A DNA stretch of 64,000 nucleotides from Nitrospinaceae bacterium. GTDB lineage: Bacteria; Nitrospinota; Nitrospinia; Nitrospinales; Nitrospinaceae. The DNA is taken from contig OZ245011.1 of the NCBI GenBank assembly GCA_965223665.1, forward strand, positions 896,001-960,000, written 5' to 3'. This document shows, one piece after another, positions 15,185 through 30,880 of this stretch. Position 1 is the stretch's first letter; each line of letters starts with the position of its first letter. The translations under genes were made by a program, and so were the position numbers. The notes beneath the pieces are model-generated. The model was not told the origin of the DNA and did no database searches. It worked only from the letters and a program-made list of their open reading frames with translations.

Positions 15185-15200
15185 TGTTAGAATCCTAACA
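15185..15200. promoter_or_regulatory. Perfect 16-bp palindrome TGTTAG-AATC-CTAACA overlapping a putative extended -10 (TGtTAGAAT) and the cyclase start codon
   Basis: Read directly from the sequence. It has the TGT-N10-ACA geometry of Crp-family operators. No Shine-Dalgarno is visible before ATG 15200. Confidence 0.45.
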
Positions 15201-17428
15201 TGAAAACTCGTTGGTTAAATGCTTTCACAGTATCTATTGCGATTTCCCTCAGCTTAATTTTTGTATATTCCCTCGATCTTACATTTATTAAACTTCTAGA
15301 ACTTAAAGCATACGATTTTAAAATGTCCTTGAGAGGAAAACGACCTGTATCCGACAAAATAGTAATTGTCGCAATTGATGAGCATAGCTTACAACAAGAG
15401 GGACGGTGGCCCTGGCCGCGTACCCGTCTTGCAAATCTAGTTAACAAATTAACTAAATTTGATGCGACAGTAATCGGGTTAGATATCCTATTTCCAGAAA
15501 AAGACATTTACATTCCACTAGACGAAGTGATACGCGAGATAAAAAAAAAAGATCTCACAAAAATTAGTCGTAGCGAAGCTGTAAGTTGGTTAAAGCAAAT
15601 AAGTAATTCGGATGGCAAATTTGCTGAAGCAATTCTTCAGTCGAACCGTTTGGTAATGGGTTATTTTATTTATTCAACAGCCCAACAGGCAAAAAAATCA
15701 GCTAGAATGATGGGACCAAGAGAATTGGAGCTACTAGATTCTTCACAATATTCCATAGTCAATTTCAACAATAATTCTCAGGTTTTTGATTTTCTTCATC
15801 CTATTTTTGCTGTAGGTCTCAACATTCCATCTTTGATGAAAGTTGCCAAAAGAGCTGGTAGTCTTCACTTTATGCCAGATCGAGACGGAATTCTAAGGTT
15901 TATTCCCATGGTCCAGGCATACAAAAATGTTTTATTTCCCCCGTTCAGTTTACAAATTTTAAAAGAAGCTACTAATTGGAATACCACCATCGATATTTTT
16001 TCTGACCACGTTGCAGAAATCCAATTGGGAGATATACCCATTCCAGTTACAGAGAAGGGAGATTTTCTCATCAATTATTACGGACCGAGTCAAACCTTTA
16101 CTTACATATCCGCCTCCGACGTAATAAATGAAAGGGTGGATCCAACAACATTAAAGAATAAAATAGTACTCGTTGGCGCCACCGCAACTGCTCTCCCGGA
16201 CCTTCACAGCACTCCTTTCGACCCCTTGTATCCTGGGGTTGAGGTGCATGCAACCGTTATGGAAAATATTCTAAACCAAGATTTTTTGCAACGTCCACCT
16301 TGGATTCGTCTCTTGACCTTAATAATGGTTTTAATTACCGGGGTGCTTCTAGGTTGGGCTTCTCTTCATTTTAAAGCTTTTGGCACATCCATAATTTTAC
16401 TTTTTGGAATTGGGGGATATTTAGTTACAGACTACGTGCTTTTTACTCAGAAGGGGCTGTGGGTTTATACCGTGTATCCTGTGTTCTCTCAATTTCTTAT
16501 ATTTTCAGGAGTTACCCTATATCGATTCATTTTTGAAGAACGTGAAAAGCGTTTTATTAAAGGTGCATTCAGCCATTATTTAGCACCAACGGTGGTCAAC
16601 CAACTGGTGGAAAACCCAAAACTCCTTAAATTAGGCGGAGAACGTAAAGTGCTCACAGCTTTTTTTTCTGATGTGGCTGGGTTTTCTTCAATTTCAGAAA
16701 AAATGGAAGCAGAAGAATTGGTAGATTTGCTAAATGTTTATTTAACGGACATGACAGAAATAATTTTGAAATATGAAGGTACGGTAGACAAGTATGAAGG
16801 TGATGCAATCATTGCTTTTTTTGGAGCTCCTATTGCTTTTGAAGATCATGCCACCCGAACCTGTTTAGCAGCCATGGATATGCAAAAAAGACTGGCTGAG
16901 TTGCGGGATATTTGGAAAAAAGAAGGTCTTCCCGAAATGTTTATGCGTATCGGTATCAATACAGGGCCAATGGTGGTGGGTAATATGGGATCAATTAACC
17001 GTATGGATTACACTATGATGGGAGATTCAGTAAATTTAGCGGCACGGTTGGAAGGCGTCAACAAACAATATAAAACATATACAATGATCAGCGAGTATAC
17101 TTACGAGTTAGCAAAAAACAATATAGAAACCCGTGAATTGGATTCCATTCGAGTTGTAGGAAGACAGGAACCACTAAAAATCTATGAAGTATTGGGTAAA
17201 AAAGGTGAAATAAATGATTTTATACATCCCATTTTGCCTTACTTTAAAGAAGGCTTGAATCATTATAAAAATTTAAGGTGGGAAAGAGCTATCGAATCTT
17301 TCCAAACAGCATTAAACCTTTATGAAAACGATGGACCTTCAATGACTTATTACGAAAGGTGCATTACCTTCCAAAAACATCCCCCACCCTCTGACTGGGA
17401 TGGAGTATTTGATATGCCATCCAAATAA
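15200..17428 (+). CDS. CHASE2-domain membrane class III adenylate cyclase
   Basis: N-terminal TM, CHASE2 (IVIVAIDEHSL..GRWPWPR, IGLDILF, YPGVEVHA), three further TMs, cyclase domain (FFSDVAGFS, DKYEGDAI, MRIGINTG, DYTMMGDSVNLAARLEG) and a TPR-like tail ending DWDGVF. Confidence 0.93.
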   Translation: MKTRWLNAFTVSIAISLSLIFVYSLDLTFIKLLELKAYDFKMSLRGKRPVSDKIVIVAIDEHSLQQEGRWPWPRTRLANLVNKLTKFDATVIGLDILFPEKDIYIPLDEVIREIKKKDLTKISRSEAVSWLKQISNSDGKFAEAILQSNRLVMGYFIYSTAQQAKKSARMMGPRELELLDSSQYSIVNFNNNSQVFDFLHPIFAVGLNIPSLMKVAKRAGSLHFMPDRDGILRFIPMVQAYKNVLFPPFSLQILKEATNWNTTIDIFSDHVAEIQLGDIPIPVTEKGDFLINYYGPSQTFTYISASDVINERVDPTTLKNKIVLVGATATALPDLHSTPFDPLYPGVEVHATVMENILNQDFLQRPPWIRLLTLIMVLITGVLLGWASLHFKAFGTSIILLFGIGGYLVTDYVLFTQKGLWVYTVYPVFSQFLIFSGVTLYRFIFEEREKRFIKGAFSHYLAPTVVNQLVENPKLLKLGGERKVLTAFFSDVAGFSSISEKMEAEELVDLLNVYLTDMTEIILKYEGTVDKYEGDAIIAFFGAPIAFEDHATRTCLAAMDMQKRLAELRDIWKKEGLPEMFMRIGINTGPMVVGNMGSINRMDYTMMGDSVNLAARLEGVNKQYKTYTMISEYTYELAKNNIETRELDSIRVVGRQEPLKIYEVLGKKGEINDFIHPILPYFKEGLNHYKNLRWERAIESFQTALNLYENDGPSMTYYERCITFQKHPPPSDWDGVFDMPSK

Positions 17429-17501: not shown

Positions 17502-18152
17502 CTAGCTCAAAATTCCTTGCTTATATGCATAACGAATTAATTGTGCGTTACTACTCAAGTTCATTTTTTTAAGTATCCGGGTTCTATAAGTACTAATGGT
17601 GGAAGCACTGAGTGAAAGTTCAACAGAAATATCATTTACAGATTTACCCAGAGCAATAAGACGAAATACCTCAAATTCCCTGGAAGAAAGGTTTTTATGA
17701 GGCGGTTTTCCATTGAATACTATTTCATTAATTGCAATCACATTGGCAAGATTAGGACTGATATATTTTTCTCCTTGAACCACTTGCCGTATGGCTTCAA
17801 CAATTAATTCCATAGAGCTTACTTTCTCCAAATAACCTGATGCACCTTCCTGAAAACACAATTTCGCACTGTCTTCTTCAGGAGAAGCACTAAATACGAT
17901 AATTGGAAGGTTCGGATATTCAATTTTTAACTGACGCATAACGTCCCAACCATTTTTTTCTGGCATATCTAAATCCAGGAGAACTATATCCAATTCCAAC
18001 ATTCGAGTTTGTTCTAATAACTCTATTCCATTTTTCACTTTCTTTACCACGGTCATATCCGAAATTTGGGACAGTATTTGCGCCAATCCTTCCCTAACGA
18101 CTTCATGGTCGTCAGCAATAATTATTCGGATTTTTTCCTTTTGGGCTACCAT
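17502..18152 (-). CDS. NarL/FixJ-family (UvrY/GacA-like) response regulator, REC + LuxR HTH
   Basis: IIIADDHEVVREGL, LLDLDMP, LSSREFEVFRLIALGKS...TISTYRTRILKKM. Confidence 0.92.
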   Translation of the reverse strand: MVAQKEKIRIIIADDHEVVREGLAQILSQISDMTVVKKVKNGIELLEQTRMLELDIVLLDLDMPEKNGWDVMRQLKIEYPNLPIIVFSASPEEDSAKLCFQEGASGYLEKVSSMELIVEAIRQVVQGEKYISPNLANVIAINEIVFNGKPPHKNLSSREFEVFRLIALGKSVNDISVELSLSASTISTYRTRILKKMNLSSNAQLIRYAYKQGILS

Positions 18153-18807
18153 AAAAACTTCAAAAAAAACGAAAGATTTTCTTTTTTCTTATCGTTAAAT
18201 GTTTAAGAATGTGTTCCGATCAAATTCTCCATAATCCCGTTATTATAGAAAAAGGTACCATAATTCGCATGACTTGCAACGAAATAACGCCTTATTTGAC
18301 TTATTTTAGACGGTTAATAAATAATTGAAATTAACATCTCAATCCCAAAATATTCACCACTATAAAACTATTTCAAAGAAGCCTGAATTCTATAAATCAC
18401 AACCATAATCCCAAAAATTATTTAAAATTTTTTAATTCCTTTCTGAGCAAATACAACAGTAGTTAATTCCATGTCGCTATTTCAACGACAAAATTTTCAC
18501 AACTCCTGTGACAAGACAAAACATTTTTTATTGATTATATTTAGACCTAGAATCTTCAATAAATTTTTTAATTGAAGAAAAAGATTAGTAGGTAGTTTGA
18601 GTTTTAGGACGGGTTATCCAAACCTGGCAAATCAAACAAGCCTTGGTTTGAACGAAATTAAATTCCTTAAGACAAACTACCGTCAGCTTTGACATAGGAG
18701 GGATTAAAAATGTTATTAGAAACTATAAATCTAGCAAACCATCGCAGGGATCAAAAGTTTTCTATAGCACTCCTTTTGAAAACGCAAAGGAAGAATTTAA
18801 TAAACCT

Positions 18808-20496
18808 TTGGACACTATAAATGCAATGGAACTATTACAAGAATCAAAAGTATCCTATCAGACACTTCTTGATAATTCTTTCGATGCCATTATTTCAATT
18901 GATGCTGAAGGGCTAATCAAGGTATGGAATCATCGTGCAGAATCAATGTTTGGTTGGAAAGCAGAAGAAGTTATTGGTAAAGCTCTCACCCAAACGATCA
19001 TTCCACCTTCTTTTCATGAAGCGCATACTAAAGGCTTAAAAAACTTTTTAGCAAAAAATGAAAGTCGAGTTCTAAATCAAAAGTTGGAATTAACAGCAAT
19101 TCACCGAAAAGGAAATGAGTTTCCAATCGAAATATTCATTTGGGCAACTTACATAAGAAACAAAGTTTCTTTTACGGCCCTTATAAAAGACATAACTGAA
19201 AATAAAAACTTTCAGAAGGAAATGCGTCTTAAAAATGCAGAATATAAAGTACTGCACCAGGTGGCTCAAGTTCTTCAAAATTCAAAATCAATGGAAGAAA
19301 TGTTACACCATGCAATGGAAGTAATCAGCCAAAGCAAGGAACTACATGTAGAAAACAAAGCCGGAGTTTTTCTTGTGGATGAGGAAAAAAATGTACTGCG
19401 ACTCGCTTCTACCTTAGGAAATTTTCCAAAGGGTTTTCTGGAAAACCAGGCCGAGATTCCTTTTTACAATGTTCCCTATGGACGTTGCTATAGTACTGGA
19501 GAGATCCAAATCAAAGATTATTGCCAATTTAAACCTCATCGATTAGGTCCATTTGGAAATTTAGCCAATTATGGTACTTACATTATCCCCCTTAAAAGCA
19601 AAGCTAAAGTTGTGGGTATATTGTTTCTTTATACTCCAGAAACACCACCTTGTTATGAAGGTAGTACTGAAATTTTGATGTCAATCGGTTCCCTTATGGG
19701 CAATGCGATTCAACAAAGGAAATATGAAAAGAAAATTCATGAACAAAATAAAAAATTAAACAAACTCAATGAATTAAAAAACAAATTTCTTGGAATTGCT
19801 TAACACGATCTTCGAAGTCCCCTATTCGTAATTTTATCTTATAGCCGTATTCTTGCCGATGGATCCAAAGGCCAAATTAATGACCAGCAACTTTCTTTAA
19901 TTCAAAAAATAATAAATTCTGGTGAATATATGTGTGATTTATTGGGAAACTTATTGGACGTTTCAAAAATTGAAAGTGGCCAATATTTTTTAAATAAATC
20001 CGCACACAATATAAATGCTCTTGCATTTGAGGAAGTTGAAAAATTTCAACATGTCGCAAAAGAAAAAAATATTGAACTTCATTTTGAGAAAATGGATTCA
20101 CCCAACTTGATGGTGGACGTATGCTCCATAATCCAGGTAATGGATAATTTCATTGGAAATGCCATTAAATTTTCTCCTAAAAATACAAAAGTCTTCATCA
20201 AAACAGAAAATTTGAAAAGCTGGTTTCGATTCTCTGTGAAAGATCAGGGACCTGGAATTTCAGAAGAAAATAAAAAATTAGCTTTTAAAGAATTCCAAAC
20301 TTTAGGAAATAAACCCACTGGTGGGGAGAAATCGACCGGCCTGGGATTGGCTATTTCCAGGAAAATAATTCAACTGCATGAAGGCCAAGTTGGAATTATT
20401 TCCGAGATTGGAAAAGGGAGTACTTTTTACTTTGACCTACCAATCCTTAGAAAGGTCAACACGGAAGACGGTCAAACATTGATTAAAAATGACTAG
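18808..20496 (+). pseudogene. PAS-GAF-HisKA-HATPase sensor histidine kinase interrupted by an in-frame TAA at 19801-19803
   Basis: ORFs 18808..19803 and 19930..20496 share a frame. Read-through gives KFLGIA*HDLRSPL (H-box), then NFIGNAIKF, DQGPGI, STGLGL, GKGSTF. It could be a true nonsense allele or a sequence error. Confidence 0.8.
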
Positions 20497-20636
20497 TTTT
20501 TATTTAATTGTAGAAAGGTATCAACCTTTCAAAAATAGAATTTTTAAACTCTCAAAATAGAGAGAAGTCGATTTGAAAGATAGTATTACAATCTTACAAA
20601 AAGGCTAATTCACAACCCAAATGAAGGAGAATAAAA

Positions 20637-21059
20637 ATGTCAATTTTAGAAAACATTTCAGGAACCCATGGAAAAATTTTAATTGTAGATGATGACACAG
20701 AAATTAGAGATATCGTCAAATCGCAACTAATTGAAGGAGGTTATCAGGTACTGGAAGCCAAAGATGGAGAAGAGGCGATTAACCTTATGAAACAGGGATC
20801 AAATTTGCTCCGAGTGGGTTTGATTATCTGTGACATTCGTATGCCAAAAGTAAATGGTATCGAGGCTATTGATTATATAAAAGAAAATGCACCGTCTATT
20901 CCTATCATGGTGCTTACCGGATATCCAGATACTTATTTGGCATTATCCTTATTGAAAAAAGGAATTAAAGAATATGAGATTAAACCGGTTGAAAAAGATC
21001 GATTACTTGAAAAGGTACGAACTCTACTTGCTGCTAAACAAGATTTTAATTATGTCTAG
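20637..21059 (+). CDS. Single-domain response regulator (receiver)
   Basis: ILIVDDD, IICDIRMP, VLTGY, IKPV, with an AAGGAG RBS. Confidence 0.9.
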   Translation: MSILENISGTHGKILIVDDDTEIRDIVKSQLIEGGYQVLEAKDGEEAINLMKQGSNLLRVGLIICDIRMPKVNGIEAIDYIKENAPSIPIMVLTGYPDTYLALSLLKKGIKEYEIKPVEKDRLLEKVRTLLAAKQDFNYV

Positions 21060-21068
21060 TTTAAAAAT

Positions 21069-21110
21069 TCTCCCCCTTTTCTATAAGTTTCAACATAAAA
21101 AAGGGGGAGA
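21069..21110 (+). terminator. Inverted repeat, probable terminator after the receiver gene
   Basis: TCTCCCCCTTTT (21069-21080) pairs with AAAAGGGGGAGA (21099-21110). Confidence 0.6.
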
Positions 21111-21559
21111 CCAGAAAAAAATAATTTTGTAATTAAATAAATTATCTTTCTTAAAAATTTTTACTACATAATTCTGTATCGCAAAGAGAATTGCAATAAA
21201 TATTTCTTATGATCTAGCTCAAGTGACCGAGGAACATATCGAAAGAAGGATAATAAAATAATTTTTTATAAATGGTTTTATAAACACAGCGGACCAGAGC
21301 AAATGTTTACTAGTTTTTTACAAGCATGGTTAAAGAGAACTTCCAAAATACCCCAATTAGGCGTTGGAAAATTTTTCACCTTTGCCGAAAAAAATATGCT
21401 ATTGTTGGCAAAGATTTTCCAGTGGAAGCAAAATATGCGCCGCAAGAATGTTTTGCTCCAAAGTTTAATTGTTTTACCAGGAAACTACTATGCAGTAAAA
21501 AAACTCGAGGCGTTTGCTCACTGATTTTGCAAAAACCGCCTTATCTGGGAGGGTGGGTG

Positions 21560-24500
21560 ATGAGAAACTACAGCGGACACCTAATTCATTTTCAAATATT
21601 CTTATACCTGACAATCTTTGGATTTTATCCTCATGTTTCATTTGCTGCGAAATGCGAAAAGCCTATTGCCAAAATTGTATCGGCACAAGGAAGCGTAGAG
21701 GTACAACACGTTGGAAATGCAGATTGGAAACCAGTTGTATTAAATGAAACTTTTTGCCCGGGAGATAAGCTTCGTACAGATCCAAAAAGTCGTGCTGAAA
21801 TTGCGCTGGATAAATCTATTCTTCGCCTGAACGCCAATACCCTCCTTACCCTTAAAAATGTAAAGGAAAATAATACTGCCCTGATCGATTTACTTAAAGG
21901 AATCGCTTATTTTTTCAGTCTTGCCCCCAAAAGCCTCGAAGTCACAACTCCCTTTGCCATAGCTGCAGTCCGAGGCACAGAATTTCTGATAACTGTTACC
22001 CTCCAAAAAACTTTAATCACGATTTATGCCGGTAAAGTGTTTGCTTCCAATTCTAATGGATCCCTCATTTTGAAAAATGGGCAATCTGCTATCGCTGAAA
22101 GTGGTCAAGCTCCTGTTTTGCAGGTAAGACTGCGTCCACAAGACGCCGTTGCCTGGACTTTGTATTATCCACCAGTTATTAATATTCAAACTGAAGGTTA
22201 TCCGGAAGCAATCCGGCAATCGATTCAATATTATCAAAAGGGAAATATTAAAGGAGCATTTGACAGTATTGAAAACGCACCTGAGTTTCAGGATCCCAAG
22301 CTTTTAAACTATTTGGCGTCTCTAGAACTATCTGTCGGCCAGGTAGAAGCCGCCAACAAATACATTCAGAAAACCTTAAGCATTGACCCTAAAAATAGCG
22401 AAGGGTTGGCACTGCAATCAATCATTGCTTTGACTCAAAATAATAAAGAAGAAGCTTTAAGCAAAGCCAAACAGGCTGTTCAAGCCAACTCCCAATCTGC
22501 AACGGCGCAGATCGCTTTATCATATGCCCATCAGGCCAGGTTTGATATGAATAGCGCTCTGGCCAGTGGTCTAAAAGCCGTTGAACTGGAACCGCAAAAT
22601 GCACTGGCCTGGGCACGCCTTGCAGAACTCTGGTCGGCCAAGGGCTATCAAAAGAAAGCTCTGGAAGCAGCCCAAAAAGCGGTTTCGCTAAACCCAAACC
22701 TGGCAAGAACGCAAACGGTTCTTGGATTTGCTCATCTTACAAATGAAGATACCTCCAGTGCTCGCACCGCTTTCCAAAAAGCCATCGAACTGGATCAGGC
22801 AGACCCTCTTCCCAAATTGGGTCAAGGCATGGCTAAAATTCGAGACGGTGAACTGGAGGAAGGACGAAAAAATATTGAAGAAGCGGTCAACCTGGATCCA
22901 AACAATTCCCTGATGCGCAGCTATCTGGGAAAAGCATACTACGATGAAAAACGCAGTGTCAAAGCATTAGAGCAGTTCAGTATTGCTAAAAAGCAGGATC
23001 CCAAAGACCCAACTCCCCTTTTCTACAGCGCTATTGAAAAGCAAACCACCAACCGACCGGTGGAAGCATTGCACGATTTGCAAAAAGCAATCGATTTGAA
23101 CAATAATCGAGCACCGTTCCGGTCCCAGTTGTTAATGGACAAGGATCTCGCTTCTCGTAGTTCTGCCGTAGGGCGCATTTATACCGATCTAAATTTCCAG
23201 AATCGGGCCTTATTAGAGGGTTGGTTATCACTCGCTACAGACCCTACTAATTTTTCTGCCCATCGTCTTTTAGCAGACTCATACTCTATTTTACCGCGAC
23301 ATGAAATTGCCCGAGTCAGCGAACTGCTTCAGTCACAACTTTTGCAACTTGTTAACATGACCCCCATACAACCGCGCCTGGGGGAAAGTAATTTATTACT
23401 CATCAGTTCTGGTGGTCCGGGGGCCTTGTCCTTTAACGAGCTCAATCCCCTGTTCCAAAGCAATGGTATCACTTTCCAGGGAAATGGGATTGCCGGGGAA
23501 AACGATACCTACTCTGGCGAAGGCATCATTTCGGGAATTTTTGGAAAAGCTTCCTTCAGTGTAGGATACAGCAAATTTGATACCAACGGTTGGCGCCCAA
23601 ATGCAGACCAGGAAGATGACATTGTCAACGTTTTTACACAATTTCAGATTTCTCACCTTACAAGCGTACAATTTGAATACAGGTTCCGCGAGACTGTACA
23701 AGGAGATATTGTACAAAGGTTTTTTTCCTCAGACTTTCAGGCAACCTTAAGGAATAAAGATACAACAAATACAGCTCGCTTGGGTTTTCATCATGTATTC
23801 ATGCCTGGATTGGATGTTATTGGTAATTTTTCTTATCAAAATATGGATCGAGAATTGAAAGATCCATTTTTTTCAGTTGAACTCATGGGCAAAGATAAAT
23901 CTCTCGGTGGTGAGCTCCAAATGCTATTCAGGTCGAAATATATTAATATGGTGACCGGTGGAGGGTTCTTCTACATAAATATCAAAGAAACTTTTACCTT
24001 TACCCCCTTTCCACCCGAAATTTCGGATTTTACTCAGAAACATTCCAATTTTTATTTATATTCCTATATTAAAATATTAAAGAATTTAACCCTCACTATT
24101 GGAGGTAGCGGTGATTTCTTTAACACGGACAATCCCATGGCAAAGGATAAAAACCAATTTAATCCTAAGATTGGGGTCGTTTGGGAACCGCTCAAAGGAA
24201 CTACTATTCGTGGCGCCTGGTTTAGAGTCCTAAAGAGAACTTTGGTAGCTCAACAAACCATTGAACCGACTCAGATCGCCGGATTCAACCAGTTTTTTGA
24301 TGAACTTAATGGAACTGACTATTGGGTACGCGGAGTTGGTATTGATCAAAAATTCACTAAAAGTTTTTACGGTGGAATACAATTCACTGAGAAAGATTTG
24401 GATGTTCCTATTCTGTTTAGTTTCCCTCCAGCCCTGCCACAGCTAAATATTTTCTCCTGGGAAGAAAAACAAGCTCGCGCTTATTTATTTTGGACGCCGC

Positions 24501-24904
24501 ATCAATGGGTATCTCTATCTGCAGAATGGATTTGGGAACGCCTGGACAGGGAATCACTACTCAATTTAAATGTCCGAGCTTTAGAAACCCATTATTTTCC
24601 AATGAAGGTTAATTTTTTCCACCCTTGCGGGTTAAGCCTTTCCATCAAAGAAACCTATGTGAATCAAAAAGGCACTTTTAATCGATTGACTGCACTACCG
24701 GGAGTCCTTACCCCTGGAAAAGATAGTTTTTGGTTAACTGATATCGCCATCAAATATCGTTTTCCAAAGCGATATGGATTTCTGACCGCGGGGGCCACTA
24801 ATTTGTTTGACGAAAGCTTTCAGCACTTTGACCCGGATTTAAATAACACACGTATACAACCAGTCCGGGCTTTTTTTATTTCAGTGACACTAACAATTCC
24901 ATAA
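21560..24904 (+). CDS. Outer-membrane FecR-TPR-beta-barrel protein (NsrA-like architecture)
   Basis: ATG 21560 follows GGAGGG and begins a signal peptide (..HVSFA/AKC), so it is preferred over ATG 21326. FecR-like domain (SAQGSVEV..CPGDKLRT..VTTPFAIAAVRGTEF), many TPRs, and a C-terminal amphipathic beta-strand region with a TonB-receptor-like end (GATNLFD...RAFFISVTLTIP). Confidence 0.85.
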   Translation: MRNYSGHLIHFQIFLYLTIFGFYPHVSFAAKCEKPIAKIVSAQGSVEVQHVGNADWKPVVLNETFCPGDKLRTDPKSRAEIALDKSILRLNANTLLTLKNVKENNTALIDLLKGIAYFFSLAPKSLEVTTPFAIAAVRGTEFLITVTLQKTLITIYAGKVFASNSNGSLILKNGQSAIAESGQAPVLQVRLRPQDAVAWTLYYPPVINIQTEGYPEAIRQSIQYYQKGNIKGAFDSIENAPEFQDPKLLNYLASLELSVGQVEAANKYIQKTLSIDPKNSEGLALQSIIALTQNNKEEALSKAKQAVQANSQSATAQIALSYAHQARFDMNSALASGLKAVELEPQNALAWARLAELWSAKGYQKKALEAAQKAVSLNPNLARTQTVLGFAHLTNEDTSSARTAFQKAIELDQADPLPKLGQGMAKIRDGELEEGRKNIEEAVNLDPNNSLMRSYLGKAYYDEKRSVKALEQFSIAKKQDPKDPTPLFYSAIEKQTTNRPVEALHDLQKAIDLNNNRAPFRSQLLMDKDLASRSSAVGRIYTDLNFQNRALLEGWLSLATDPTNFSAHRLLADSYSILPRHEIARVSELLQSQLLQLVNMTPIQPRLGESNLLLISSGGPGALSFNELNPLFQSNGITFQGNGIAGENDTYSGEGIISGIFGKASFSVGYSKFDTNGWRPNADQEDDIVNVFTQFQISHLTSVQFEYRFRETVQGDIVQRFFSSDFQATLRNKDTTNTARLGFHHVFMPGLDVIGNFSYQNMDRELKDPFFSVELMGKDKSLGGELQMLFRSKYINMVTGGGFFYINIKETFTFTPFPPEISDFTQKHSNFYLYSYIKILKNLTLTIGGSGDFFNTDNPMAKDKNQFNPKIGVVWEPLKGTTIRGAWFRVLKRTLVAQQTIEPTQIAGFNQFFDELNGTDYWVRGVGIDQKFTKSFYGGIQFTEKDLDVPILFSFPPALPQLNIFSWEEKQARAYLFWTPHQWVSLSAEWIWERLDRESLLNLNVRALETHYFPMKVNFFHPCGLSLSIKETYVNQKGTFNRLTALPGVLTPGKDSFWLTDIAIKYRFPKRYGFLTAGATNLFDESFQHFDPDLNNTRIQPVRAFFISVTLTIP

Positions 24905-24965
24905 AAACTTGAATTGTTAGAATCTGGAAAGATTATAATCGAAACCATTCTGAGGAGGGCTAAAT

Positions 24966-25601
24966 ATGCTTAACAAATCAAAGGAAAAAGTACCTAAGTT
25001 AATAATTAAGTTAATTTTAATGATTTATTTTACCATTTCATTTTCCGCTTGCACAAAGACAATACCAAACTATGAGCATCCTATTCCTGATACCACTCGA
25101 ATACCCACTCGAATAAATAAAACTATTGAATTCAAAGGAAAAGGAGAAAAAGAAAGTAAAGTAATATGCACCCAAGTAGATCCAAAAACTCAATGTGAGA
25201 TACAAGTCCCCTGCCAAACAGGAGAAAAAGTAGAAACGAAAACTCTCGCAGAAGTTTTAGGCGTGGACAAAGCAATAGTTGATATTGAAAATCATGCTTG
25301 TGCAACATTTAGCCTGGATCTAGGTCACCAAAAAAATCCTTATTATTGTTCCGGAGGTTTTTGTAGGTGGTCACCATCTGACAGAAGATTAAAGAACAAT
25401 ATCCATAAAATTGGGCAATTGAAAAATGGTCTCAATATCTATAAATTTAAATATATTTGGGATGATGCCTGGAGGGTGGGAGTAATGGCAGATGAGGTAC
25501 GTAAAGTTTTACCCGAAGCCGTGATTACCATCAATGGATACGATCTCGTGGATTATTCAAAAATCAAAATTGACTATTCTGCAATTACAGATGATCAATA
25601 A
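24966..25601 (+). CDS. Cys-rich putative lipoprotein (cassette A) fused to a C-terminal peptidase S74-type intramolecular chaperone domain
   Basis: GAGGAGG RBS, hydrophobic signal with lipobox FSAC, six-Cys domain paralogous to 25957..26451. From 25377 it reads SDRRLKNNIHKIG...IYKFKY...GVMADEV...PEAV...GYDLVDYSKI. Confidence 0.8.
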   Translation: MLNKSKEKVPKLIIKLILMIYFTISFSACTKTIPNYEHPIPDTTRIPTRINKTIEFKGKGEKESKVICTQVDPKTQCEIQVPCQTGEKVETKTLAEVLGVDKAIVDIENHACATFSLDLGHQKNPYYCSGGFCRWSPSDRRLKNNIHKIGQLKNGLNIYKFKYIWDDAWRVGVMADEVRKVLPEAVITINGYDLVDYSKIKIDYSAITDDQ

Positions 25602-25626
25602 AATGCAAATTTCATAATTCTGTATT

Positions 25627-25654
25627 AAGGCAGGGTCTTTTTGGACCCTGCCTT
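25627..25654 (+). terminator. Rho-independent terminator after cassette A
   Basis: AAGGCAGGGTC-TTTTTG-GACCCTGCCTT, a perfect 11-bp stem. Confidence 0.8.
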
Positions 25655-25956
25655 CTTCATTTATGAACATTTGGATAAATAATTTACCTGTATTTTTTTT
25701 AGAATATGGAATGAACCTTCATCATCAACTTCCTAGAAATATTTACCAATCCATTTGCCTCTTTTAATAATTTTCTTAAATTTTTTTCTGCATTTAAATC
25801 AGCAATGATGTTTTAATAACTTGTCTCCTTGTTCAGGATCTAGGAAAAAGTGAATTTAGCAAATCAGGATTAAAATAGTGTAACTATTGATAATGTATTG
25901 AGATGTTTTTGAACAAGAAATTTTTATCGAATCAAACCAAATGAGGAGGGATAAAT

Positions 25957-26451
25957 ATGCTTTACAAATCTAGAGCACCCATCACCATCATAATGATTAA
26001 AACTTTTGCACTTGTTTATTTTATTATTTACTTTTCTGGAATTGCAAATTCCAATGAGATTCAGCAGGGTCTGGACACCACCCGAATACCTACCAAAATT
26101 AAAAAAACAATAAAATTTTTTGATAACAAAGAAAAAGCAAGAACAATGGAAAGTTTTGGAAATGAAAGAATAGCTAGCACATCAGAAAATTCTGACGCCA
26201 CCCCGGATACCAGCAAAACAGTGTGCACGGAAGTGGATCCAAAGACTCAATGTGAAATTGCAATACCTTGTGGATCGGAAGAAGAATTAGAAAAATTTTC
26301 GCTGGCGGAAATCTTGGGAATGGGAAAGGCTAATATCATCATTCCTGGTCAAACTTGTGCAACCTTTATTCTTGATATTGATCACCCCAAAACTCCCTGG
26401 TATTGTTCAGGAGGAATTTGCACTTTGTATGGTTCAGGCAATTCTGGATGA
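25957..26451 (+). CDS. Secreted six-Cys protein (cassette B), paralog of cassette A without the S74 domain
   Basis: GAGGAGG RBS, signal peptide, DTTRIPT motif and the same C-x8-C-x5-C-x28-C-x15-C-x4-C spacing as cassette A. Confidence 0.8.
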   Translation: MLYKSRAPITIIMIKTFALVYFIIYFSGIANSNEIQQGLDTTRIPTKIKKTIKFFDNKEKARTMESFGNERIASTSENSDATPDTSKTVCTEVDPKTQCEIAIPCGSEEELEKFSLAEILGMGKANIIIPGQTCATFILDIDHPKTPWYCSGGICTLYGSGNSG

Positions 26452-26503
26452 AGAACTTGATATCTCTAAAATTGGAAAGTATTAAGATTTTGAATAAAAT
26501 ATA

Positions 26504-26536
26504 AAGAAGGCCGGGTAATTTTTTCTCGGCCGTCTT
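26504..26536 (+). terminator. Imperfect hairpin after cassette B, related to the cassette A and D terminators
   Basis: AAGAAGGCCGGG...CTCGGCCGTCTT around a T-rich loop. Confidence 0.5.
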
Positions 26537-27143
26537 GGCTTTGAGAAATATATTAGAGGATTATACCGTTTTTCATGCCTCTTTAATTCTTACCAAATGT
26601 GACATTCCAATTTTTCCTAAGGAAAAAAAATTCTCTACATTCTCATTTTCAGAGTTTCTTGCCAAAGATTTTCTTGTCCCAAATTTTATTCTCCCTTCTA
26701 AACTCCACCCTTCCCCAAAATTCATTCTTTATTTTCTGACCAAAGGACAACTGACAATTGCTTACCTTTGTCGTAGAACCCCTAAAACACAAAAAACTAC
26801 ATTTTTTGGTTGTATTTTACCAGGTTTATAGTATATTCCGTTTAACTAAATTTTTGGTTTATTAAACTTCTAACCTTTGGTGTTTTATACATGAAAACTA
26901 ATTAAAGCCTTAAGTTTAACCAAAACGAGAAGAGCCCGCCAGAATCAATTGGCTCCTTATTATTACTAAACCAAATAATTTTGGATTATAAAAATTTTGT
27001 CTTCAACGATTTTACCCGTTTTCTTGAAAAACCTCCAAGGGCAAAACCATACGCTCTTAACCAACTAAATCTATTTTTTTATAGGCCTAGTTGAATATAT
27101 ATAAAAAAGCGTTTTATTCAAAACCATTATAGGAGGGCTTAAT

Positions 27144-27638
27144 ATGCTTATCAGGCAAAAAACATATTTCTTAATTGGCTTATGGTTTTTGATGTTGTTT
27201 GTACTTTACGCTACACCCCAAATAGTATTAGCAAAAGAAAAAGGTCAAAAGGAAGAATCTACAAAAAATTTAACTGGCCCATCAGCCAACCGTACTTGCT
27301 TAAACTTGGGAAGAGCCTCTATTTTGGTTTCATTTACAGATGGTTGTCCGAGAGATCCCAAAAAAGTTAAATTTTTCACAGAAACCCAATGCCAAGGAAA
27401 AAGAAAAAATCCGGATATTTTATCAAAGGCTGTGACCGTGTACAGCTCAGGAATCGACACAGGAGGGGTTCTCGAATGTAGGTGGAATGCAAAAGTTTGG
27501 AAAGTCAATCCATACTGGTATGTCTATTCTGCGGGAGGTAATGTAGCTTGCACCTGTTACGATTTCACCAATCCGCTTCCATATACATGCGACCCGGAGG
27601 ATTTAAATAATCCTCCTGCTAATTGTTCAGGAAATTAA
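27144..27638 (+). CDS. Secreted eight-Cys protein (cassette C)
   Basis: AGGAGG RBS, signal peptide (..QIVLA/KE), and a C-terminal 41-aa block homologous to cassette D. Confidence 0.8.
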   Translation: MLIRQKTYFLIGLWFLMLFVLYATPQIVLAKEKGQKEESTKNLTGPSANRTCLNLGRASILVSFTDGCPRDPKKVKFFTETQCQGKRKNPDILSKAVTVYSSGIDTGGVLECRWNAKVWKVNPYWYVYSAGGNVACTCYDFTNPLPYTCDPEDLNNPPANCSGN

Positions 27639-27797
27639 TTAAGTCATGTTTAATTAACATTTAAATATGCAATAGTGATCGAGCCAACAGGTTAGACACA
27701 GTTGCTTCTGGTTCTTCCAGAGTAAAAAGATAATTAATAAACAAGATCTCTTTAAATCTTGCTTGAACAAATTTCCAATGAAGAAAAGGAACGTAAA

Positions 27798-28286
27798 ATG
27801 AATAACAAATATATAAAACCAGCTAAACCATTATTTGTCCAATTAGGCATTATAATCCTCTCAGCCTTGGTATTCCTTGGATCTGATAATGGATCTAATT
27901 TGATTGTTTCCAATACCTGCATTAATTTGGATAGCAATGCATCTGTTTGTATTACTAGAAACGATGATGGAACCCCATCAACTGTAGACTGGTTTCCAAG
28001 AACGGGATGCCCACGTTCACTGGCATGTCCTTCTCTTGATTCTTCTACTGAAAAGAGCAATCTTGCCTTGGGAGATTCCTCGGATATTTTTACTTCCAAA
28101 GAGGAGGGCGAAATTTGCACCGATGGGCACTCTAATGAGTGTCTTGATAAAGAGATATTTAACCCCACCTGGTATCAATATACTGCTGGGGGTAATGCAT
28201 ATTGCAAATGTTATGACTTTACTGCTGCTCCTCCCTATACATGCACACCGGAGCAATTAGCAAATCCTCCCTCTTGGTGTTCATAA
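27798..28286 (+). CDS. Secreted ten-Cys protein (cassette D), paralog of cassette C
   Basis: ATG 27798 follows AAGGA and is preferred over TTG 27759. Hydrophobic N-terminus, and the block NPxWYxYxAGGNxxCxCYDFT...PYTCxPExLxNPPxxCS shared with cassette C. Confidence 0.78.
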   Translation: MNNKYIKPAKPLFVQLGIIILSALVFLGSDNGSNLIVSNTCINLDSNASVCITRNDDGTPSTVDWFPRTGCPRSLACPSLDSSTEKSNLALGDSSDIFTSKEEGEICTDGHSNECLDKEIFNPTWYQYTAGGNAYCKCYDFTAAPPYTCTPEQLANPPSWCS

Positions 28287-28291
28287 TAATT

Positions 28292-28393
28292 ATAGGGGTT
28301 ATGGCAGATGAGGTTAAGAAAGTTAAACCGGAAGCCGTAATTACCATCAATGGATATGATCTCGTGGATTATTCGAAAATCCCATTGAACTAA
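28292..28393 (+). pseudogene. Orphan C-terminal half of a peptidase S74 domain
   Basis: Translates as IGVMADEVKKVKPEAVITINGYDLVDYSKIPLN*. 28301-28381 matches 25485-25565 at 71 of 81 nt by manual alignment. Confidence 0.85.
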
Positions 28394-28438
28394 TCTACTG
28401 GTAAAAATAATCCATTGTTTTTTACTTTTTCTAGTTAT

Positions 28439-28470
28439 AAAGGCAGGGTCTTTTTCGGCCCTGCCTTTTT
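28439..28470. terminator. Terminator (possibly bidirectional), near-copy of the 25627 hairpin
   Basis: AAAGGCAGGGTC-TTTTTC-GGCCCTGCCTTTTT, between convergent genes. Confidence 0.8.
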
Positions 28471-28489
28471 CAAAATTTTTTTGATGAAA

Positions 28490-30880
28490 TTAATTACTTC
28501 GTGGAATGGTAAAGAAAAAGGTGCTCCCCTTCCCTATTTCTGACTTGAACCCGATTTTCCCTTTGTGTCCTTCCTCAATAATTTCCTTGCAGGACATCAG
28601 GCCAAATCCATCACCGTCAGGTTGAGAGGTAAAGTTTTCATTAAACAAAAGTCTTTTGATTTCTTCCGGAATTCCCGTTCCTTTATCCTCAATACGGACC
28701 TCAATAAATTCCTCTAAACCTTCAACAGAAACACAAATTTCAGAATTCTTTTGGGAGGCATAACCTGCGTTGAGTATCATGTTCTGTAGAACTCTTTTAA
28801 TGTCCAATGTGTTTACCGGTCCAATAGAATTAGAATCATTTTCAAGAAGTGTTACTTTTTTATTTTTAATGTCATCATGAAAGCCAATTTCTTCTTTTAC
28901 TTCCTTAACTAAATCAAAAATATCTATTTCTTTTTTTGGATATTCTCGAGTTCCCTTTTGGACACAAGCCAGGCTTTGGTCAATCATTGAAACCATGTTA
29001 TTTTTTACGGAAATCATAACCTCAAGACCTTTTTTGAGTTTATCAAGGCCCTTACGCATATTATGCTGCTCATTGGAACCGGTTAGTTTTTCCAGAGTAT
29101 TTTGAAAATGCATCTTGGAAAACTCCAGAGGCACTAAACAGTTTTTCATGTCGTGAGTAAAGTGACTCAGTTGTTGAACATCATTGGACATTGTATCCAG
29201 GTCATTTCTTAAACGGCGTGAACATACTTTCATCATTTCCAGCAGGGCTTTGGAATTGGACACAATGTATTTGGCAAATAAATCTTTATCGATTTCAATT
29301 ATTAGACCATCGGTTAATGCCACTGCAGAAGCTGACCGAGGCAAATTGTCAATCAAGGAAATTTCTCCAAAATATTCTCCCGGGTTTAGATCCGTAATAA
29401 CTTTTTGGTAGTTTGGCCCCTTACTAATTCTGACTTTTCCACGAAGAAGAATATGAAGATATTGTTCATCCCTGGCCCCTTCCTTTATCAAAACATCCCG
29501 CGCCTTAAGAACCACATCCCTGCTTTCTTTTGCAAGATTTACTTTTGCCTCCAGTGGGAGACAGTCAAAAAGATCAATCTGCTTTAAAAGTTCTAACTTC
29601 CTCGTTATAGCATTATCGTCTGTAATATTGGTTTGTGATAATTGACCGGACTCTTTTTTAGGTTCGGTTCTTATAGATTTGGGCAGGGTGAAACAAAACT
29701 TTGTACCCTTCCCCCAATGAGATTCAAATCCAATTTTTCCATTATGGTATTTTTCAATAATCTCCTTACAGGATATTAAACCTATTCCGTTTCCATCCGG
29801 CTTAGAGGAAAAACTTTCCTTTAAAATAAAGGGTTTAATATCATCCGGAATACCAGAGCCGTTGTCCTCAATACTGATTTCAATTGCATGGTTCATATTT
29901 TTTACAATACAGACTATTTGATCTTTTTTCTGGGTTGCATAACCTGCATTGATGATCAGGTTTTGCAAAACTCTTTTAATATCCAAATAGTTGATTTTCC
30001 CAATGACTTTGGATTCCGGAGATTCCACCCTGAGTGTTTTGTGTTCAAGTTGCTTATGACAGGAAATTTCTTTTACCGTTTCTTTGGCTAAGGCCAATAT
30101 GTCAAAACTATCTTTGACGTATTCTCCCTGCTGTTTTTTAACGCAGGCCAGACTCTGATCGATTAATGTGGTCACATAATCCCGAACTTCTATAATTGTA
30201 TCCACTCCCATTTTCAACTTTTTAAAACCATCCCGCCTTATATGACCTTCTTCAGTCCCATTCATTATTTGCAAAACTTTTTGAAGATAGCTTTCTGAGT
30301 TTTTTAAGGGTAAAAGAACGTTGCGCATGTCATGTGTAAAACAACTCATTTTACGCATGTCTGATTCCATACGGGCTAAGTCATTTCGAATTCTTTGAGC
30401 AAAAACTTTCATCATCGCCACCAAGGCCTTTGAGTTGGAGGCAATATACTTTTGAAAAATTGTCTCATTGATTTCCAGCAATAAGGTATTTTTCATAGAC
30501 TTTACTGAAGCCGAACGGGAATTCGAATCTACTAAAGGCAATTCGCCTACATAATCGCCAGTACTTAAATAGGAAATAATTTTTTTTGATTTAAAAACCA
30601 CCACACGGCCAGTGAGGATAATATACATGGATTTCTGCTGCTCACCTTCCCATTCGAAGAGGATTTCCTCCTCACCCAGGCGCCAAAGGGGACTTTCCTC
30701 TATAATCCTCAGCAAGGTCTCTTTGTTAAAACAATTGAAAAGCTCAATTTTCATCAATTCTTCCAATTCCATTTCTTGAAGTTTCTTTTGCAGTCCCATT
30801 TGTCCAGGATTTGGCGAAACTTTTTTATAAGAATGGATATCAGATACCTGAGTCTTTTTTTCTGGAGAAAAGTTTTTCAT
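28490..30880 (-). CDS. Cytoplasmic tandem [cyclic-nucleotide-binding domain + histidine kinase] x2 protein
   Basis: cNMP cassettes GDYVGELPLVDSNSRSAS and GEYFGEISLIDNLPRSAS, H-boxes FTHDMRN and FTHDMKN, two HATPase domains (NLIINA/DNGSGI/GIGL/GKGT and NMILNA/DKGTGI/GFGL/GKGS). No TM segment seen. Confidence 0.88.
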   Translation of the reverse strand: MKNFSPEKKTQVSDIHSYKKVSPNPGQMGLQKKLQEMELEELMKIELFNCFNKETLLRIIEESPLWRLGEEEILFEWEGEQQKSMYIILTGRVVVFKSKKIISYLSTGDYVGELPLVDSNSRSASVKSMKNTLLLEINETIFQKYIASNSKALVAMMKVFAQRIRNDLARMESDMRKMSCFTHDMRNVLLPLKNSESYLQKVLQIMNGTEEGHIRRDGFKKLKMGVDTIIEVRDYVTTLIDQSLACVKKQQGEYVKDSFDILALAKETVKEISCHKQLEHKTLRVESPESKVIGKINYLDIKRVLQNLIINAGYATQKKDQIVCIVKNMNHAIEISIEDNGSGIPDDIKPFILKESFSSKPDGNGIGLISCKEIIEKYHNGKIGFESHWGKGTKFCFTLPKSIRTEPKKESGQLSQTNITDDNAITRKLELLKQIDLFDCLPLEAKVNLAKESRDVVLKARDVLIKEGARDEQYLHILLRGKVRISKGPNYQKVITDLNPGEYFGEISLIDNLPRSASAVALTDGLIIEIDKDLFAKYIVSNSKALLEMMKVCSRRLRNDLDTMSNDVQQLSHFTHDMKNCLVPLEFSKMHFQNTLEKLTGSNEQHNMRKGLDKLKKGLEVMISVKNNMVSMIDQSLACVQKGTREYPKKEIDIFDLVKEVKEEIGFHDDIKNKKVTLLENDSNSIGPVNTLDIKRVLQNMILNAGYASQKNSEICVSVEGLEEFIEVRIEDKGTGIPEEIKRLLFNENFTSQPDGDGFGLMSCKEIIEEGHKGKIGFKSEIGKGSTFFFTIPRSN

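Follow-up and report, generated by a model that had tools for sequence, protein, structure and literature searches.

In Sinorhizobium meliloti, NsrA is described in the available parts of two reports as an outer-membrane receptor that is needed for the activation of CyaK and CyaD1/D2 by a protein signal (PMC7529298, PMC13001267), and in the available part of the first the signal is named as the host protein uL2 (PMC7529298). The nsrA gene abuts cyaK, and in our domain scan NsrA contained FecR and TPR domains and CyaK a CHASE2 and a cyclase domain. To our knowledge, among the NsrA-type receptors coupled to CHASE2 cyclases only this rhizobial one has been studied. Here, we analyzed a 64,000 nt-long stretch of a Nitrospinaceae bacterium genome (assembly GCA_965223665.1, contig OZ245011.1, positions 896,001 to 960,000 of the forward strand; the window in the following), in which the gene for an NsrA-like receptor is directly followed by four genes for small Cys-rich proteins that we call A, B, C and D. 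The initial annotation had combined these four proteins into one set on the basis of a C-terminal (N/T)P-aromatic-GG-Cys motif.

An NsrA-like receptor and the gene slot behind it

Our preferred interpretation, to which we assign a probability of roughly 55%, is that the locus is a trans-envelope module of the NsrA/CyaK type that operates with cyclic nucleotide monophosphates (cNMPs) and has a variable partner slot behind the receptor. Two unrelated families of small Cys-rich proteins fill this slot directly 3′ of the receptor gene, and A is fused to an intact-looking phage-type S74 intramolecular-chaperone domain; the four-gene, two-family slot and the S74-fused, lipoprotein-like A are what is unusual here. 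The features of the locus, which were assigned from open reading frames (ORFs) and Pfam or BLASTP matches, are the following:

15200..17428, + strand: CHASE2-domain adenylate/guanylate cyclase, 742 aa (Pfam CHASE2, E 1.1e-65; Guanylate_cyc, E 7.8e-23)
21563..24904, + strand: NsrA-like receptor with FecR, TPR repeats and a C-terminal beta-barrel (Pfam, BLASTP)
24966..25601, + strand: protein A, 211 aa; ORF with lipobox-like signal, Cys-rich passenger, motif and S74 domain
25627..25654, + strand: terminator-like hairpin 3′ of A with a 12-pair stem; copy at 28440-28467
25957..26451, + strand: protein B, 164 aa; paralogue of A with signal peptide and motif T146-C155 (26392-26421), no S74 domain
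27144..27638, + strand: protein C, 164 aa; signal peptide, 8 Cys, motif N122-C136 (27507-27551)
27798..28286, + strand: protein D, 162 aa from the ATG; 10 Cys, motif N122-C136 (28161-28205)
28292..28472, + strand: A-type S74 remnant (last ~35 codons, in a frame different from that of D, containing a TAA) and terminator copy
28490..30880, - strand: 796-aa protein with two cNMP-binding and two HATPase_c regions (Pfam), convergent

The receptor ORF is open from 21326, and its start at 21563 was inferred from orthologues. In the Pfam scan it matched FecR, TPR families and, in the barrel, TonB_dep_Rec_b-barrel (E 7.3e-9). A Plug family was not among the matches listed, and we do not class the protein as a TonB-dependent receptor. 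When plasmids were searched with tblastn, the receptor matched pSymB genes annotated as nsrA. BLASTP against S. meliloti NsrA gave 24% identity over 518 aa of the N-terminal part (E 3e-23) and a colinear second match in the barrel (residues 810-1090 versus 917-1183, E 1e-5), and judged from these alignments the receptor is a distant, colinear NsrA homologue. The cyclase is, by its domain content, a CyaK-like inner-membrane output enzyme, and the convergently encoded 796-aa protein is a kinase-like candidate reader of the cyclase product. The locus thus shares with NsrA-CyaK the FecR-TPR-barrel order, a nearby CHASE2 cyclase and a cyclic nucleotide output, whereas the receptors are only 21-24% identical and the likely reader is this double cNMP-binding, HATPase-containing protein instead of Clr. 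A more remote likeness exists to the LysM-FecR and CHASE2 histidine kinase system ('BiofilmReg') of Burkholderia, which according to the available part of its description also combines a periplasmic FecR protein, a CHASE2 sensor and a small exported protein (DUF4136), but differs in having neither barrel nor TPR, a kinase instead of a cyclase output and an unrelated accessory protein (PMC5192318).

The receptor family is large: of the 8,000 candidates scored, drawn from many phyla, more than 2,035 matched at E ≤ 1e-5. Within the Nitrospinota it is rare: the gene was detected in three of the 120 genomes searched, namely this genome and those we call G015 and G009. A scan of genome contigs returned only two Nitrospinaceae metagenome-assembled genomes (G015 and G009 again), a metagenome scan one incomplete 3.3-kb contig that lacks the downstream part, and a scan of viral contigs none. 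The GC content is 0.42 in the receptor gene, 0.34-0.40 in its neighbours and 0.36 in the window; together with the rarity in the phylum and the commonness in other phyla, the value for the receptor gene would fit a module that was acquired laterally.

In all three genomes the slot lies in a common frame made up of the cyclase, the receptor and the 796-aa cNMP-binding protein, and in G015 and G009 the CHASE2 cyclase (743 and 742 aa, respectively) is the direct divergent neighbour of the receptor gene. The slot is filled in each of them with small Cys-rich genes directly 3′ of the receptor gene, the products of which have N-termini that by eye look like signal peptides or lipoboxes. The number of genes differs throughout (four here, one in G015, two in G009). 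The adjacency between small proteins and a FecR-TPR-barrel gene, to which the initial annotation had drawn attention, hence recurs in all three of these genomes, and a link of the small proteins to the barrel is likely. The G015 slot protein (143 aa, lipobox-like) is a distant homologue of A and B (hhalign probability 94.9%, E 4.5e-8) and possesses neither the motif nor an S74 domain. The G009 slot (L025, 6809-8703) encodes Cys-rich proteins of 379 and 223 aa that share a C-terminal module (E 2e-11) of ~60 residues, ..IC.D..N..P.GCD..G.D...LC.T(F/Y)(F/Y)C..GG.C... By eye, the first half of this module recalls the tail of C and D and the second half the hairpin of A and B, but the statistics support neither likeness: the hhalign comparisons of the module with C/D (E 0.044), of the module with A/B (E 0.14) and of C/D with the 223-aa protein (E 0.0035, probability 9%) did align the parts that the eye picks out, but none was significant.

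According to the mechanism that we propose, A to D would be exported via Sec and disulfide-bonded in the periplasm, with A probably lipidated at Cys29. The small proteins would bind the periplasmic TPR part of the receptor or its plug-less barrel and may tune the cNMP output in the role of co-receptors, modulators or self-made ligands, while the cNMP-binding, kinase-like protein would read the output of the cyclase. A predicted complex of receptor residues 290-1113 with A residues 30-137 scored 0.30 (mark 0.32), which speaks neither for nor against binding. With the barrel protein placed in the NsrA family, a partner or modulator of the receptor is at least as likely a role as that of a ligand repertoire, which had been suggested initially. 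A small protein whose gene regularly accompanies that of such a receptor would provide a handle on the mechanism of outer-membrane sensing and relay. A wider proposal, that the widespread NsrA-type receptors have their missing cognate partners, or ligands of the cell's own making, in small exported proteins with a Cys-braced aromatic hairpin and that this genome holds a diversified set of four, one of which trimerises via a phage-derived self-cleaving chaperone, is tentative, and we hold it to be more doubtful than the module itself. A literature search, subscription papers and supplements aside, yielded no paper that ties CHASE2 or NsrA systems to small Cys-rich partners.

The sister genome G001, from the same genus, contains neither the receptor gene nor the A/B and C/D families. 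Its CHASE2 cyclase, of the orthologous type and 58% identical, lies in a cluster (3287-10626 of C13:422000-441000) that is encoded on one strand and also comprises a ShlB/POTRA barrel, a 274-aa FecR protein and a 749-aa secreted protein with a TPS (two-partner secretion) domain. By analogy, it follows the same logic with other parts, namely an outer-membrane barrel, FecR, an exported protein and CHASE2. It differs in that the barrel is of the Omp85/POTRA (ShlB/FhaC) type, FecR is a separate protein and the exported protein is a large TPS protein rather than a small Cys-rich one. Among the literature matches listed, none dealt with CHASE2 together with two-partner secretion.

This cluster, with a true TPS exporter and a secreted TPS protein beside FecR and a CHASE2 cyclase, speaks for the alternative that the small proteins are cargo, exported or displayed on the surface via the barrel as in Slam/type 11 or two-partner secretion, and not regulators. 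Slam/type 11 systems consist of a DUF560 barrel with TPR encoded beside its lipoprotein cargo, and the locus resembles them in that TPR repeats precede an outer-membrane barrel and small lipoprotein-like proteins are encoded next to it (A, the G015 protein and the 223-aa protein of G009 are lipobox-like). However, no DUF560 match was listed for the receptor at E up to 1, and TPR_Slam, at E 0.37 and 11.7 bits, stayed far under the cut-off of 35.2. B, C and D have no lipobox, and the FecR head and the homology to NsrA, which the available part of PMC7529298 treats as a signal receptor, point to a receptor instead. We regard a cargo role as distinctly improbable.

The S74 domain of protein A

Protein A contains seven Cys, the lipobox Cys29 and six in the mature part. 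Its N-terminus (..LMIYFTISFSAC29) looks by eye like a lipobox after a hydrophobic signal and is followed by a Cys-rich passenger of 108 aa that includes the hairpin motif N124-C133 (25335-25364), and by a 74-aa S74 domain from S138 to the end (25377-25598). Residues 138-186 matched Peptidase_S74 (PF13884) with E 1.9e-10 and 41.3 bits against a cut-off of 22. The predicted dyad S138-D-R-R-L-K143, which begins five residues past Cys133, has Ser and Lys at i and i+5, a spacing equal to that given for S911/K916 of endoNF and S587/K592 of MyRF in the available part of PMC8326128. There, S74 domains are described as cleaving themselves by means of the Ser-Lys dyad only once trimerised, so that a stable trimeric N-terminal product remains (PMC8326128). 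The sequence SDRRLK is kept in all four S74-bearing members of the family, A and the three metagenomic relatives P0002-4, and it stands directly after CSGG.C in the latter three.

The relationship to phage proteins is evident from the PHROGs comparison, in which A residues 132-208 aligned at the C-terminal end in 19 phage families, and from tblastn, which returned 59 phage records with podophage internal-virion, ejection and structural proteins (48-55% identity) as the best matches. A is the sole S74 gene in the genome; none was found in G001, G009 or G015, and B, C and D have no S74 domain. With phage tailspike and tail-fibre S74 domains (endoNF) and the MyRF ICA domain, A shares PF13884, the C-terminal position and the distance of five between Ser and Lys. 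It differs in its client, a 108-residue Cys-rich, lipoprotein-like domain with no fibre-like repeats rather than a triple beta-helix fibre, in the shortness of the domain (74 aa) and in the chromosomal location of the gene within a signalling locus; moreover, a sequence search of the PDB with the S74 part and the A-family profile as queries gave nothing below E 0.18.

The S74 domain of A would trimerise the precursor and cut before Ser138, and the cut would leave a trimeric lipoprotein that ends about five residues after an aromatic-flanked Gly-Gly hairpin stapled by Cys128-Cys133. Processing next to the motif, which the initial annotation had anticipated, is thus predicted for A, with Ser138 five residues after Cys133. 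The release of a C-terminal peptide as the mature signal, also considered there, does not fit: what the predicted cut in A discards is the folding chaperone. With the fusion in A, the S74 folding device of phages and MyRF would be extended to a small lipoprotein of the bacterial envelope; if true, this would be a use of S74 in partner assembly that is not described for bacterial signalling.

Two small-protein families and the motif

The four ORFs, the motif strings, the positions of the NP and the even numbers of mature Cys (6, 6, 8 and 10) that had been reported for A to D are all real: NP starts at residue 124 in A and at 122 in both C and D (with D numbered from its ATG at 27798), and B has TP at 146. 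An alternative TTG start of D at 27759 would yield 175 aa. A and B are 49% identical, and B differs from A by an insertion of 24 aa and matched no Pfam or NCBIfam family. The identity between C and D is 34%, and C carries the A-type 5′ leader and the same ML start. Protein A had eight matches in a search of 5.8 billion proteins, of which only P0002-4 (47-58% identity to A) are full-length. For relatives of C and D, HMMER was run exhaustively on 1.84 billion representatives and gave seven matches; two were set aside and kept out of the C/D alignment, the 821-aa repeat protein P0014 (E 2e-6), which we judged to be a spurious repeat match, and the 91-aa fragment P0015. In the ESM Atlas there was no usable match for the A passenger or for C, and a metagenome scan for the C/D family revealed no locus.

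That the pairs A/B and C/D are unrelated over most of their length was borne out, with no significant similarity between them. The best BLASTP matches between the pairs had E 1.4 (A versus C) and 0.021 (B versus D, in the central region and not in the motif), hhalign of the A family against C/D gave a probability of 0.2%, and hidden Markov models (HMMs) of each C-terminal region produced no cross-family match among 24,425 six-frame ORFs. The B-D match and the hhalign A-C match were rejected as signs of homology, each using different Cys of C/D.

The pattern of conservation differs between the families. All five A-family members (A, B and P0002-4) keep [NT]P..CSGG.C. The five members of the C/D family (C, D and P0011-13) all keep P.WY and the following Cys; NP is present in three of them, and GG in C and D only. 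Furthermore, 25-28 conserved residues follow the motif in C/D, and the relatives end in ..PPxxC[QS] and have no S74 domain; since they share this end, D can be taken as full length without S74. For A the C-terminal position of the motif does not hold as encoded, given that the S74 domain follows it, but the predicted cut would bring it close to the C-terminus of the mature protein. Taken together, the conservation test and the lack of significant similarity between the families imply that the motif does not define one family, contrary to the initial view of A to D as a single family united by it.

The strongest case for the contrary, that A to D form one diversified repertoire with a C-terminal (N/T)P-aromatic-GG-Cys hairpin that is recognised by the barrel or released as a signal, comes from pattern searches. 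A fitted regular expression, [NT]P.{0,1}[FWY][FWY].{0,4}[SA]GG.{1,3}C, matched A to D alone among 15,743 six-frame ORFs of the genome, and in composition-matched shuffles it occurred two (mature C) and three (mature D) times per 200,000. As it was written after the sequences had been seen, the ORF and shuffle figures overstate the significance of this post hoc pattern; a looser expression occurred 445 (C) and 304 (D) times per 200,000 shuffles. Also in line with one repertoire are the nearly identical residue number of NP in A, C and D, the presence of aromatic-aromatic-C..GG.C near the C-termini of both G009 slot proteins, and the rank of C as the second-best non-self match of 24,423 ORFs to an HMM of the G009 module, though at E 0.77. 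Structure prediction gave models too poor to use for A (5-row alignment, predicted local distance difference test score, pLDDT, of 49.9) and for C (5 rows, pLDDT 46.3), and both of these low-confidence models would set GG at the turn of a beta-hairpin. Against one repertoire stand the incomplete conservation of GG (2/5) and NP (3/5) in the C/D family, the G015 homologue of A/B without the motif, the hhalign probability and the HMM searches between the families, and the different continuations after the motif, conserved residues in C/D and the S74 domain in A. We therefore consider a single repertoire unlikely, and a motif shared between the pairs by ancestry is probably not the case. Both families have a Pro-led, aromatic-rich strand-turn-strand with a Cys near its end, and the NP-aromatic-GG-Cys likeness is at most a possible convergent theme of an aromatic, Cys-braced hairpin rather than a trace of common descent.

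History and surroundings of the array

The DNA of the array is a mosaic. The segment 25479-25659, which comprises the last ~120 nt of A and the terminator, recurs at 28295-28472 with 75% identity over 181 nt, and the remnant after D still reads, in another frame, as the tail of an S74 domain (80% identity to A residues 171-205). A leader of 43-48 nt with a ribosome-binding site (RBS) and an ATG-CTT start is common to A, B and C; that of C (27112-27153) is 84% identical to that of A (24933-24975). The C-D block is hence flanked by A-type sequence on both sides, a 5′ leader before it and a 3′ end after it, and no further remnants were found at the array. The simplest history suggested by these repeats is that the array grew by tandem duplication of A-type genes, that one copy may have lost its S74 part to become B and that the C-D pair may have taken the place of the interior of another. 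The 18 nt at 28101-28118, within D, agree in 16 positions with the RBS-start leader that A, B and C share, with ATTTGC for ATATGC and out of register; this is probably chance.

The same traces of rearrangement invite another explanation, in which the array consists of evolutionary debris or hitch-hiking orphans in a recombination-prone gap with no tie to the receptor, and A is a relic of a phage gene. The S74 remnant, the truncated B, the AT-rich gaps and the nonsense codon in a nearby kinase gene would fit local decay, the S74 domain is phage-like, and apart from the weak G015 match neither the A/B nor the C/D family was found in 60 relatives, with G001 lacking the receptor as well. Yet none of the four frames is broken, the encoded proteins begin with signal-peptide-like stretches and have even numbers of Cys, and the metagenomic relatives of both families keep the Cys pattern. 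Each of the three genomes with the receptor has genes in the slot, among them once more, in G015, a homologue of A/B. The scan of viral contigs did not turn up the A family, and A is the only S74 gene of the genome, with no prophage noted around it. In our assessment, it is very unlikely that the array is debris.

Several points weigh against the NsrA/CyaK-type module with its partner slot. Binding, export and cleavage of A to D are predictions, and none of the computations lends binding direct support. Context is provided by three receptor-bearing genomes only, all of them kin, whereas the metagenomic relatives P0002-4 and P0011-13 come from contigs no longer than 4,007 bases and so add no context. 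No small Cys-rich gene is annotated beside nsrA-cyaK of S. meliloti, in a plasmid gene table that is incomplete, and the known system thus works without such a partner. The passenger of A, small and Cys-rich, does not look like a beta-helix or a fibre, the usual clients of S74. Cyclase and receptor genes are 4.1 kb apart in the window, with two-component ORFs between them, and a TAA in one of these ORFs hints at local decay. Finally, the hairpin 3′ of A and the long AT-rich gaps mean that B to D are perhaps poorly expressed or decaying: the intergenic gaps measure 355 nt before B and 692 nt before C, and the B-C gap has a GC content of 0.31.

Contigs from four runs of one sample, which is probably the source, cover the region in one piece and with identical sequence; they support the assembly and nothing more. 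An Rfam scan of 20400-28700 gave nothing near threshold. Between the cyclase and the receptor, at 17502-21059, lie four two-component ORFs that encode a LuxR-type regulator, a broken PAS-GAF histidine kinase in two pieces and a single-domain receiver. The PAS-GAF kinase (18808-20496, + strand) is interrupted by an in-frame TAA at 19801-19803, one codon 5′ of the His of the H-box (..KFLGIA*HDLRSPL..), and past the TAA the frame continues into the HATPase domain. The TAA may be a nonsense mutation or mark a pseudogene, or it is possibly read through.

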